From sequence record OL362041.1: 64,000 bases of DNA. One strand, given 5' to 3'. The notes beneath the pieces were generated by a model. It saw only the letters and a program-made list of their open reading frames with translations. It was not told where the DNA came from and did no database searches. Positions 1-34,071 of this stretch are shown here, one piece after another; position 1 is the stretch's first letter; every line of letters begins with the position of its first letter. Source of the DNA: Escherichia phage vB_Eco_OMNI12. The translations under genes were made by a program, and so were the position numbers.

Positions 1-401
1 ATATACAAAATTCGCGAAAGCGATAAACCTCTGAACTTGCTTCCTTTATTACCAATAAAACTGCGCACAGAATCAGTAAATAAACGAAAACGTATATCAT
101 CATTAGAATAACGCGAAAATTCCTTTTTAATATTATCTGCGGAAATTTTAGCGTAAGCTGAAGTATTAGAAAGAACAATAACTGTTCCGCCATCATACAA
201 CCAATTAGCAGCAAAGTTAGTCACAGCAATTGATTTACCAGATTGACGCCCACCATCTAGTCGAAGTGTACAATACTGTTTAAGTAAGTCTTCAAATGGC
301 GGGATATATTCGTTTTTACAAATTTCTTCTACTCTAGCATCAGAATGGTGTGTAAAAGCATTCATCAGGGATAGATAAGGACCAGTTAAAAATGTTCTCA
401 T
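1..401 (-). CDS. P-loop NTPase-like hypothetical protein, N-terminal part only (gene runs past window start)
   Basis: Minus-strand ORF starting at ATG ~399-401 (MRTFLTGPYLSL...), Walker A-like GGRQSGKS; absent from ORF track because truncated by window edge. Confidence 0.4.
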   Translation of the reverse strand, partial: MRTFLTGPYLSLMNAFTHHSDARVEEICKNEYIPPFEDLLKQYCTLRLDGGRQSGKSIAVTNFAANWLYDGGTVIVLSNTSAYAKISADNIKKEFSRYSNDDIRFRLFTDSVRSFIGNKGSKFRGLSLSRILY

Positions 402-546
402 TTTGTTCTCTCTAGGTTTGGGCCATTCCATGGCGCATGAATTGTCCATTTCTGTATTTACCCATTACCGCACTTGGGCTCGACCTTATTACAGGTTGGC
501 GGGAATCCCTCACAGAATCATGAGGTCCAGGTTATTCCCATGTTAT

Positions 547-963
547 TTAAATGTAAATATTTTTGCCGTAATACTTATACCAGTGTGGCTTCATTAAAAT
601 TTTTTCATCGAGTCGTTGTTGACTCAACTTAATAGCTGATTTGCATGGATTATAATCATTTTTTCATTCTACTGGAATATCGCTGATGTCAGGAACTTCA
701 GTATCTTTTATACTGAACCCGCGTTTTAAGCATTCCGTTATAATGTCCGATTGACGCTTTCGCAAAAATTCTAACTTATCGTAAAAGAAAGTAACATGAC
801 CAGAACCTAAAATAAATTTAGAAGATATTTTAAAATCTTTAACGCGCTTACCGTTTGCCACATGCTTACGAACTATACCAAAAACACGCGGCAATTCACG
901 GTATTCTGCGATTAAATGTTGATCAGCAAGTTCAGATACTAAAGTCAAATTAATACGAGTCAT
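547..963 (-). pseudogene. denV: Endonuclease V (pyrimidine dimer DNA glycosylase) with in-frame TGA at codon 100; 138 codons total
   Basis: ORF track 99 aa [17 protein letters not shown]... matches T4 EndoV N-terminus; same frame continues after TGA (664-666) as KNDYNPCKSAIKLSQQRLDEKILMKPHWYKYYGKNIYI to TAA at 547-549, matching the EndoV C-terminus. Confidence 0.7.
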
Positions 964-1022
964 TTTATCCCTCCAAGTAACTGTGAATATACTATCACAA
1001 TTCTAGGAGAAAGTAAACAACT

Positions 1023-1553
<531 letters not shown>

Positions 1554-2009
1554 TTAAAAGAGGTTGTTCATTATTCGGTAAAGTGAAGGACCCATCACAT
1601 ATTGCCACTGAGTACGAGGAATAAGAGCAAAAGCATCCATCTCTGGAATCATAACGCCATCTTTATTTTCAAAATAAGACTCACAATAGCAATTTCTGAA
1701 CATCTCATGCTCTACTGGAATCGTATAATAAAATAACTGTAAGTCTTTATTACTAGAATATTTAAATACACCTAGGTCTTCTAGAAGGTCTGGATTATAA
1801 TTGCTAAAACCAGTCTCTTCTAAGCATTCTCTTCGTGCTGCATCTAGTGCGCTTAAATCAGAATTTTCTACGCGGCCCTTTGGAATATCCCAACGATGTG
1901 CCATCATTCCAGGCTTACGAGAACCAGTAACCCGACCCATAAATAAATCTTTATCTTCTGTCATAAAGATAATACCAGCTGATAATGTTTTCATTTTAAT
2001 TTCCTGCAT
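1554..2009 (-). CDS. nudE: Nudix hydrolase
   Basis: Nudix box GRVENSDLSALDAARRECLEETGF; likely true start at the internal Met MKTLSAG (ATG ending 1994) preceded by AGGAAA. Confidence 0.85.
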   Translation of the reverse strand: MQEIKMKTLSAGIIFMTEDKDLFMGRVTGSRKPGMMAHRWDIPKGRVENSDLSALDAARRECLEETGFSNYNPDLLEDLGVFKYSSNKDLQLFYYTIPVEHEMFRNCYCESYFENKDGVMIPEMDAFALIPRTQWQYVMGPSLYRIMNNLF

Positions 2010-2479
2010 TCAGTGATAAAGTTATTTAAATTTTGAGCATATTTCTTTTCATCAAAAATCTTTTGTTGTCTGCGTAACCGCCATGGCATTTCAATGAACA
2101 CACACCATATTCCGGATAATATTGCTGCAGTAAAAATATTAACAAATATAGTACAAAGAGCCCAATCTCCTATTCTGTCCATTGGATTTTTTCCAAAGAA
2201 GTAAAATACGAATGATGACGCAGGAAGACTAATGATATACCACAGAAGCATATTCTTATCCGTAAACCATTCAGCGTTCGTTAACTTAGCACGACCGTTT
2301 TGAATACATACGAACTTATCATCTGTTACAGTAAATGGCTTAGCTGCTTGATATCCCATTCTAAACTCCCTAATTAATCGTTTCTTTGTATCTTCAGAAC
2401 AGCCGCTCCAGTCAACTCTATCAACTGAAATGCCATCGTCCCCATCATCTAAATCATACCAGCGAGTTTTTAAAATCAT
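1991..2479 (-). CDS. Small membrane protein (e.x-region accessory gene), paralog family member 1
   Basis: 162 aa, hydrophobic segments; ATGA start/stop overlap with neighbours. Confidence 0.6.
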   Translation of the reverse strand: MILKTRWYDLDDGDDGISVDRVDWSGCSEDTKKRLIREFRMGYQAAKPFTVTDDKFVCIQNGRAKLTNAEWFTDKNMLLWYIISLPASSFVFYFFGKNPMDRIGDWALCTIFVNIFTAAILSGIWCVFIEMPWRLRRQQKIFDEKKYAQNLNNFITECRKLK

Positions 2480-2838
2480 TTAATTTTCCTACAATCACTC
2501 ACAAACTCTTCCATTGATTCTTTTTCAATATAAGACATGTAGTTATTATATTCTTTTAATTGTATTTTGTAATCCTTTTTTCTTTGCCAATTTATTTTAA
2601 AATTATCATAATGAAAATATAACATGGTACCAAAGAATGAAAATAATGAAATCGCTATAGTATAACAAAGCTCACTCCAAACTTCTGTTATATTTACTGT
2701 GCCGTCGATGTTTAAAATAAGACAGTCAATCATTAATCCAATAAGACTACCTGCAAGAGCTGCAAATGCTGATATGGCAAGAATTAATAGTGCCTCTGGA
2801 AACGAATATTTGACTTTATTTAGTTTTGGCTTTTGCAT
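2476..2838 (-). CDS. Small membrane protein, paralog family member 2
   Basis: 120 aa, two predicted TM helices, charged C-terminal tail. Confidence 0.6.
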   Translation of the reverse strand: MQKPKLNKVKYSFPEALLILAISAFAALAGSLIGLMIDCLILNIDGTVNITEVWSELCYTIAISLFSFFGTMLYFHYDNFKINWQRKKDYKIQLKEYNNYMSYIEKESMEEFVSDCRKIK

Positions 2839-3233
2839 CGTGATTCCTTAACAAATTTCATAATTTCATTAAATTCATACGCAGCAAGTTTAAGCTGATG
2901 TTCCTTTTTAATCTTTTTACACTGAGCTTTCCATTCGCGTACGCGTTTACGATAATGTCTTCCTTGATACCAGTATCCTACCCAATTTACAGGTACTAAT
3001 AAAAATGGAACTACTAATGGAAGAATTAATACTAACAGAAATACTGCGTCTGATTCAATATCAGTAGTAACATCTATAACTATTCCAATAATCATTAGGA
3101 TTATAAATGATACAGCTGTCACAGGACCTACTAATACATCAGTAGGAATTAGCTGGCGCTTTAATTCATACTTCAACGGTTTACTTGGAAGGTATAGTGA
3201 TGGTTTTGACATATTCTCTACATTCCTTAACAA
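2820..3233 (-). CDS. Small membrane protein, paralog family member 3
   Basis: 137 aa, two predicted TM helices, basic C-terminal tail. Confidence 0.6.
   Translation of the reverse strand: MLRNVENMSKPSLYLPSKPLKYELKRQLIPTDVLVGPVTAVSFIILMIIGIVIDVTTDIESDAVFLLVLILPLVVPFLLVPVNWVGYWYQGRHYRKRVREWKAQCKKIKKEHQLKLAAYEFNEIMKFVKESRCKSQN

Positions 3234-30930: not shown

Positions 30931-34071
<3,141 letters not shown>

Follow-up and report, generated by a model that had tools for sequence, protein, structure and literature searches.

In phage T4, vs.8 (NP_049732, T4 64253-64912) lies directly 3' of denV and 5' of vs.7, and the accessory vs.8-vs.3 cluster begins with it. The gene order in T4 and its relatives is e - denV - vs.8 - vs.7 - vs.6 - vs.5 - vs.4 - vs.3 - regB - vs.1 - vs, with ipIII - ipII between e and denV in T4 only. 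The vs.4 gene encodes the anti-CBASS sponge Acb2, and its ortholog matches the Pfam family Acb2_Tad1_hairpin (E 2e-20). The product of vs.3 is the anti-Thoeris sponge TadIV-1 (PMC13243611). In the same 2026 paper, Vs.3-Vs.8 were each cloned behind "the promoter of vs.8", and among the Part I genes vs.3-vs.8, tested singly, type IV Thoeris immunity was impaired by vs.3 only (PMC13243611). Our literature search on Vs.8 found no functional study; vs.8 appears there only as a gene that was cloned and as the source of a promoter. Since vs.8 heads a cluster rich in counter-defence genes, a counter-defence role is possible for Vs.8 by analogy. Across GenBank and RefSeq, vs.8 and vs.7 orthologs are labelled variously as "endoribonuclease", "RegB domain-containing protein", and "terminase large subunit", which looks like annotation spill-over from the neighbouring regB or from weak P-loop matches.

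We found the ortholog of this gene at the edge of the window, the 64,000-nucleotide stretch of phage DNA analysed here. Translation of the minus strand of 1-401 starts at an ATG (401-399) and stays open for 133 codons to the window edge, where the coding sequence is cut, and stops are abundant in both remaining minus-strand frames. The protein begins MRTFLTGPYLSLMNAF (its opening also reads MRTFLTGPYLSLMNAFTHHSDARVEEICKNEYIPPFEDLLKQYCTLRLDGGRQSGKS), passes through GGRQSGKS, and ends, as far as it is visible, with SRILY. The initial annotation had described a truncated P-loop ORF of about 133 codons on the minus strand from about 401, downstream of denV, and we recovered the same frame, start, and motif, with denV directly upstream at 963-547 (-). 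It had not been able to place the ORF among named T4 genes. The fragment is, however, identical to T4 Vs.8 (residues 41-173) at 131 of 133 positions (98.5%, two differences) and occupies the same position between denV and vs.7, so that a known, conserved T4 ORF does match the full-length protein. The gene already has a name in T4, and its identity is nothing new.

Comparison with close relatives gave a consistent assignment, at a level of similarity far beyond chance. The fragment matches PHROG 1488 (function not assigned; E 3.4e-57), as does a full-length relative (E 9.9e-80), and all 133 residues are identical to the protein of Shigella phage SfPhi01. The first kilobase of the window is 99.2-99.3% identical to many Tequatroviruses, including SfPhi01 and phage CM8, and by this measure the source phage is a Tequatrovirus, 99.3% identical to SfPhi01. 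The visible fragment represents the 5' three-quarters of the gene, whose full protein in relatives has 179 residues. The window stops short of Walker B and the final 46 residues; both were read from relatives with an identical or near-identical sequence across the visible 133 residues, in which the protein runs through IIDEPVKSPDMDK to FFVIGMQ. We expect the window ORF to continue as ...IIDEPVKSPDMDKIYSVHIDTVH(C/Y)CCN.KCCIGGITRPQFFVIGMQ, followed by a stop overlapping the vs.7 start, as in T4, where the vs.7 start codon overlaps the vs.8 stop. The window ends inside vs.8, and the genes downstream are known from 99%-identical relatives and from T4. Overall, we consider it very likely that 1-401 (-) is an edge-cut ortholog of T4 vs.8 that encodes a predicted RecA-like ATPase, starts at the ATG at 401, and has a structured RNA leader upstream.

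The upstream neighbourhood differs from that of T4. The endonuclease V gene denV (547..963, -) is preceded by the lysozyme gene e (1023..1517, -), and the interval 964-1022 has no ipII or ipIII, unlike T4 65356-66502. Among T4-like phages, the gene ahead of the vs.8 leader varies widely and includes denV, ip-like genes, and others. Codon 100 of denV in the window is an in-frame TGA (664-666, -) in place of the TGG (Trp100) of relatives: base 664 is T in the window and C in SfPhi01 and CM8. None of 276 near-full-length matches in the phage collection was identical to a 91-nt query around this TGA, which is due either to sequencing error or to an opal mutation specific to the strain.

The start of vs.8 required separate attention, since T4 annotates Vs.8 as a 219-residue protein with 40 extra N-terminal residues, beginning MRDSRQPVIRSS. 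In the window, this longer reading is blocked by an in-frame TAG (414-412), and the stretch upstream of the conserved start carries an 8-nt deletion relative to T4. The ATG at 401-399 is preceded by a weak Shine-Dalgarno-like GAGAG (412-408; together 399..412, -), and it corresponds to the conserved start in relatives, the Met of MRTF, MKTF, or MKYL. Across 35 divergent loci, the in-frame extension upstream of this Met ranged from 0 to 45 codons, an in-frame stop occurred within 0-7 codons upstream in 15 of the 35, and the upstream sequence was read in different frames in different phages.

The spacer between denV and vs.8 (145 nt) is more conserved than the flanking coding sequence, and comparative analysis revealed a structured leader RNA of 120 nt (420..539, -), the sequence annotated in T4 as the first 40 codons of Vs.8. 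A covariance model built from 12 "long-type" leaders matched the window once in its 64 kb, at 419-540 (-), with a score of 86.5 bits (E 1e-23). With the same model, T4 scored 84 bits, long-type leaders 110-170 bits, and non-T4-like lineages 36-46 bits. All elements lie on the minus strand. Helix P1 pairs 539-534 with 506-501 and encloses P2 (525-521 with 512-508). P3 pairs 496-493 with 486-483 around a GUAAUA loop, the conserved core spans 485-461, and P6 (434-431 with 425-422) closes a UGGAA loop. A pseudoknot, PK2 (530-528 with 454-452), pairs the strand between P1 and P2 with a segment 3' of the core. The core is invariant and unpaired, the P6 loop contains a GGA, and an AUGGA roughly 20 nt upstream of that GGA is conserved.

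Covariation supports P1, P2, P3, P6, and PK2. The variants of P1 include AAAGG/CCUUU, AAAGC/GCUUU, AAAGA/UCUUU, GGGAA/UUCCC, GGGAG/CUCCC, GAAUG/CAUUC, GAGUG/CACUC, GGAAC/GUUCC, and GGGG/CCCC. In P3, ACCU/AGGU changes to GCCU/AGGC, and in P6, GCCA/UGGC changes to GGCA/UGCC and GGCU/AGCC. RNAalifold, run on a plain MAFFT alignment, independently proposed a helix crossing P1, which is PK2. The pseudoknot occurs as CCG/CGG, CAC/GUG, CGC/GCG, ACCA/UGGU, CCA/UGG, CUCG/CGAG, CCUG/CAGG, and CUG/CAG, and all four of its pairs covary on a 57-row alignment in columns that are unpaired in the model; one such pair appears as CG (20 rows), UA (11), AU (5), and GC (3), with 88% of cells paired. Over the whole structure, 91.4% of cells pair, compared with 80.4% in shuffles and 24%-43% when partners are slid, and the covariation score was reached by none of 500 shuffles; we note that the alignment was partly fitted to the model, which inflates the P1, P2, P3, and P6 counts, and that the raw sequences also show the variants of P1 and PK2.

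Other elements of the leader showed less variation or a weaker signal. The P5 hairpin (GUAA/UUAC) is conserved and shows no compensatory changes, and P7 (ACAU/AUGU) is weak, with 82% pairing. A second pseudoknot, between the P1/P3 linker and the P5 loop, had modest support (mean of 3.0 bp with its own partner versus 2.5 bp mismatched). Folding of the spacer as a single sequence gave no thermodynamic signal (z = 0.46), and the structure emerged only from comparative data. A first RNAalifold run on a mixed-type alignment found two hairpins only, because of misalignment.

The leader is widespread, and its distribution extends beyond vs.8. A BLAST search with the spacer matched 1034 phage records. 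When we scanned viral contigs, we found 35 loci with vs.8 relatives at 35%-98% protein identity, most of which had the element directly upstream; a metagenome scan yielded only 13 further vs.8 loci, mostly close relatives. Several phages carry a second full copy of the leader before another gene (L034, L035, L038, Ra_O-1, and STP4-a), and in L034, L035, and L038 the full leader precedes this different gene while only the 3' hairpin module is left before vs.8. Tandem copies stand upstream of vs.8 in L025 (1215-1469), L037 (1222-1476), and L063 (309-563), and by inspection L050 has a degenerate second unit. The leader had no match in 5,426 E. coli genomes. A scan of bacterial genomes with a 21-nt degenerate core returned 28 matches, which we judged to be chance, as all lie in GC-rich coding sequence and have no flanking hairpin.

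A 43-nt core (window 503-461, CCCGCCAACCUGUAAUAAGGUCGAGCCCAAGUGCGGUAAUGGG) is found at 92%-95% identity in rV5-like phages and a Pseudomonas phage. These copies lie on the tRNA strand in unannotated gaps beside or within tRNA clusters, in the absence of a vs.8 gene. The core occurs with its own P1 and P3 in non-T4-like phages, namely rV5 (L004 2489-2573(-), NC_011041 at about 63.3 kb), Pseudomonas phage PsgM04F (L005 2497-2567(-)), and the contigs L068, L070, L081, L086, L087, L075, and L085; in L087, it is followed, as judged by eye, by a stem-loop and U-run resembling a terminator. This pattern suggests that the core is an autonomous small RNA in non-T4-like lineages. L068, L070, L081, and L086 are relatives of the Pseudomonas phage from IMG/VR, and in them small RNAs stand one after another, one of those in L081 being tRNA-like. 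A conserved long-range stem, GUUGUGG...CCACAAC, brackets each of these RNAs, an arrangement that resembles a repeating cassette of processing stems within a tRNA/sRNA array.

These observations bear on whether the 219-residue T4 form could be real, in which case the window would have lost its N-terminus through the TAG and the 8-nt deletion, and the upstream 120 nt would be degraded coding sequence. The T4 frame is open for 54 codons upstream of the conserved Met, and the window retains a 33-codon, GTG-started remnant ORF (513-412), as this explanation would predict. However, the extension, stops, and reading frames differ among the 35 loci as described above, and indels in the leader are not multiples of three. 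In addition, base pairs of P1, PK2, P2, P3, and P6 change in a compensatory manner within this sequence, which is found ahead of unrelated genes as well, and in non-coding gaps next to tRNA clusters or inside them. We therefore consider a genuine long form highly improbable. From the comparative evidence, the 120 nt upstream of vs.8 do not code for protein but form a conserved, pseudoknotted RNA leader, and the T4 reference annotation of vs.8 very probably begins 40 codons too early.

Turning to the protein, the Walker A motif GGRQSGKS (P-loop, residues 50-57; 231..254, -) fits the pattern G-x4-GK[ST] and aligns with SRQLGKT of the large terminase gp17. In an alignment of 18 family members reaching down to 39% identity, DGGRQSGK is invariant. 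The invariant columns are D49, G50, G51, R52, Q53, S54, G55, K56, R113, R124, G125, I134, I135, E137, P138, G177, and Q179, with D136 nearly invariant. The Walker B motif in relatives, outside the window, is ILYIIDEP (residues 131-138; hhhhDEP, Asp136-Glu137), and an RG motif (Arg124-Gly125) lies eight residues before it. The C-terminal strand FFVIG(M/T)Q is also conserved. Tevenvirinae proteins spanning 35%-100% identity all keep the Walker A Lys, the Walker B Asp-Glu, and two arginines. A conotoxin match to the Cys-rich tail of T4 Vs.8 was rejected as spurious, with the Cys cluster not conserved in distant members.

Structure prediction agreed with the motifs. The AlphaFold2 model is a confident single alpha/beta domain (pLDDT 81, pTM 0.82) with the RecA-like alpha/beta fold that characterizes ASCE-type P-loop NTPases, and every one of its best structural matches is a RecA-like domain of a helicase or terminase. 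This resemblance is a generic one, with helicase RecA1 domains scoring as high as terminases. Profile matches to the large terminase subunit were weak (PHROG_2 at 2e-6; Pfam Terminase_6N at 14.2 bits, cut-off 22), and Pfam AAA and terminase matches all fell under the gathering cut-offs. Using hhalign, GGRQSGKS aligned with SRQLGKT and RG..ILYIIDEP with the RG/Walker B segment of the window's own gp17 (E 0.0026, with a probability of only 11%). Searches with Vs.8 found no match in NCBIfam and nothing significant among PDB sequences, and a search of PADLOC and anti-defence families returned P-loop matches only, which were insignificant.

The family is widely distributed and variable at its margins. 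Using tblastn, we found vs.8 in 1009 phage records, with organism names mainly of enterobacterial phages. In an exhaustive search of 1.84 billion cluster representatives, 50 clusters at 50% identity matched the Vs.8 profile (E <= 0.001), nearly all of them 150-185 aa long. In BFVD, a structure search showed that many large phages, among them phiRSL1, 201phi2-1, and Aeromonas and Vibrio phages, encode uncharacterised proteins close to Vs.8 in size and fold. Three distant Vs.8-like proteins (P0056, P0058, and P0060) carry His at the Walker A lysine position (GHS/GHT) and have no catalytic Glu in Walker B. Because these proteins have neither residue, the wider family probably includes non-hydrolysing members, and hydrolysis would not be universal within it.

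From the conserved residues, Vs.8 is predicted to bind and hydrolyse ATP via Lys56/Ser57 and Asp136/Glu137. Since a lone RecA-like domain would normally depend on a neighbouring subunit to complete the active site, Vs.8 most likely acts in oligomeric form or together with a partner, for example Vs.7. We predict that it acts on nucleic acid, or as an ATP-driven switch, early in infection.

Two other readings of the protein were weighed against this one. Vs.8 could instead be a non-enzymatic counter-defence protein that binds nucleotides or mimics terminase, for example a decoy for host sensors of the Avs1-3 type, which recognise the ATPase domain of the large terminase, or a binder of a nucleotide signal. 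Avs proteins sense terminase, and Vs.8 resembles the terminase ATPase subdomain but has no nuclease domain. Its gene shares an accessory cluster with Acb2 (vs.4) and TadIV-1 (vs.3), and distant relatives without catalytic residues keep the same fold and size. However, the invariant Walker A Lys, Walker B Asp-Glu, and two arginines in Tevenvirinae predict catalysis rather than mere binding, the PADLOC and anti-defence family search gave no significant match, and only vs.3 among vs.3-vs.8 impaired type IV Thoeris immunity (PMC13243611). We consider this reading unlikely. A kinase-type P-loop protein in place of a RecA-like ATPase, for instance a polynucleotide or nucleotide kinase, would also be compatible with a small (179 aa), stand-alone protein with a Walker A motif, and several small kinases are encoded by T4. 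This seems very improbable, given that the top structural matches include no kinases, that a Walker B with an acidic pair (hhhhDE) and an additional strand separating the two Walker strands characterize the ASCE division, and that no kinase family in Pfam, NCBIfam, or PDB was matched. We conclude that Vs.8 is a predicted stand-alone, terminase/helicase-like ASCE ATPase domain.

The locus is of interest at both levels. Vs.8 is conserved in about 1000 phage genomes, and two anti-defence proteins have already come from the cluster that its gene heads; its architecture, with only a terminase-like ATPase domain, suggests specific mutants for testing. The leader is a covarying pseudoknotted RNA that has no Rfam entry, is common to unrelated phage families, and is very probably mis-annotated in T4. 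In the best-studied phage, it offers an accessible candidate for a new RNA of regulatory or catalytic function.

Compared with described P-loop proteins, Vs.8 is closest in its motifs to the ATPase subdomain of large terminases (T4 gp17, PDB 2o0h; Pfam Terminase_6N), with which it has in common the Walker A form R-Q-x-G-K-S/T and the RG before Walker B. In contrast, gp17 has 610 residues, and Vs.8 has 179, with no nuclease domain and no N-terminal or lid subdomain; the nuclease domain is absent because the protein stops 41 residues after Walker B. Its gene lies in the early accessory region, not in the packaging module, and the window has a genuine gp17 of its own at 32236-34068. SF2 helicases such as Mfd, RIG-I, and DEAD-box proteins need a second RecA domain with an arginine finger and motifs Ia-VI, whereas Vs.8 is a single 179-residue domain with no helicase-specific motifs at the sequence level. 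As judged from its domain content, Vs.8 is neither a terminase nor a two-domain helicase.

Known RNA elements likewise did not account for the leader. A scan of Rfam 15 with permissive filters (E up to 5) found no match over the leader in window 1-3000 or in the rV5, Pseudomonas, long-type, and tandem loci. ARAGORN found no tRNA or tmRNA in window 1-1200, and a promoter and terminator scan of window 1-1100 found no minus-strand sites. We considered PeSL cassettes, in which a sigma-70-type promoter is joined to a single, simple stem-loop (Arbiol et al. 2010; Comeau et al. 2014, PMC4122927). Like the leader, they are conserved and non-coding, and flank variable genes in hyperplastic regions of T4-like genomes (PMC4122927). 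The leader differs in its length of 120-145 nt, its at least five helices plus a pseudoknot, its lack of a promoter consensus, and its occurrence in rV5-like and Pseudomonas phages as well, and we rejected PeSL as a different kind of element.

The leader is compatible with a cis-acting sensor or processing element, given its invariant unpaired core, the P6-loop GGA and the AUGGA, the tandem copies, its site directly after the upstream stop codon, and the terminator-like end in L087. The closest topological parallel is with the HDV-like (including theta) ribozymes of phages (PMC10879173), which form a nested double pseudoknot. The two have the same strand order, which is the P1 5' strand, the 5' strand of the second helix, a hairpin, the P1 3' strand, a hairpin domain, and the 3' strand of the second helix, and both are found near phage tRNA genes. 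The leader differs in that no HDV family in Rfam matches it, P1 has 5-6 bp with no G.U seen at its base, and the hairpin replacing P3 is long. Long-type leaders have a C immediately 3' of the P4-like hairpin, and the window type lacks it. Thus, the topology is compatible with an HDV-like ribozyme, but the conserved nucleotides (the cleavage-site G.U and the J4/2 catalytic C) are not consistently present, and we treat the relation, drawn by analogy, as a lead only. Set beside these systems, the leader could, we tentatively suggest, be a previously undescribed class of pseudoknotted RNA in T4-like, rV5-like, and Pseudomonas-phage lineages, acting as a ligand-sensing riboswitch or a self-cleaving or processing element that controls the anti-defence cluster.
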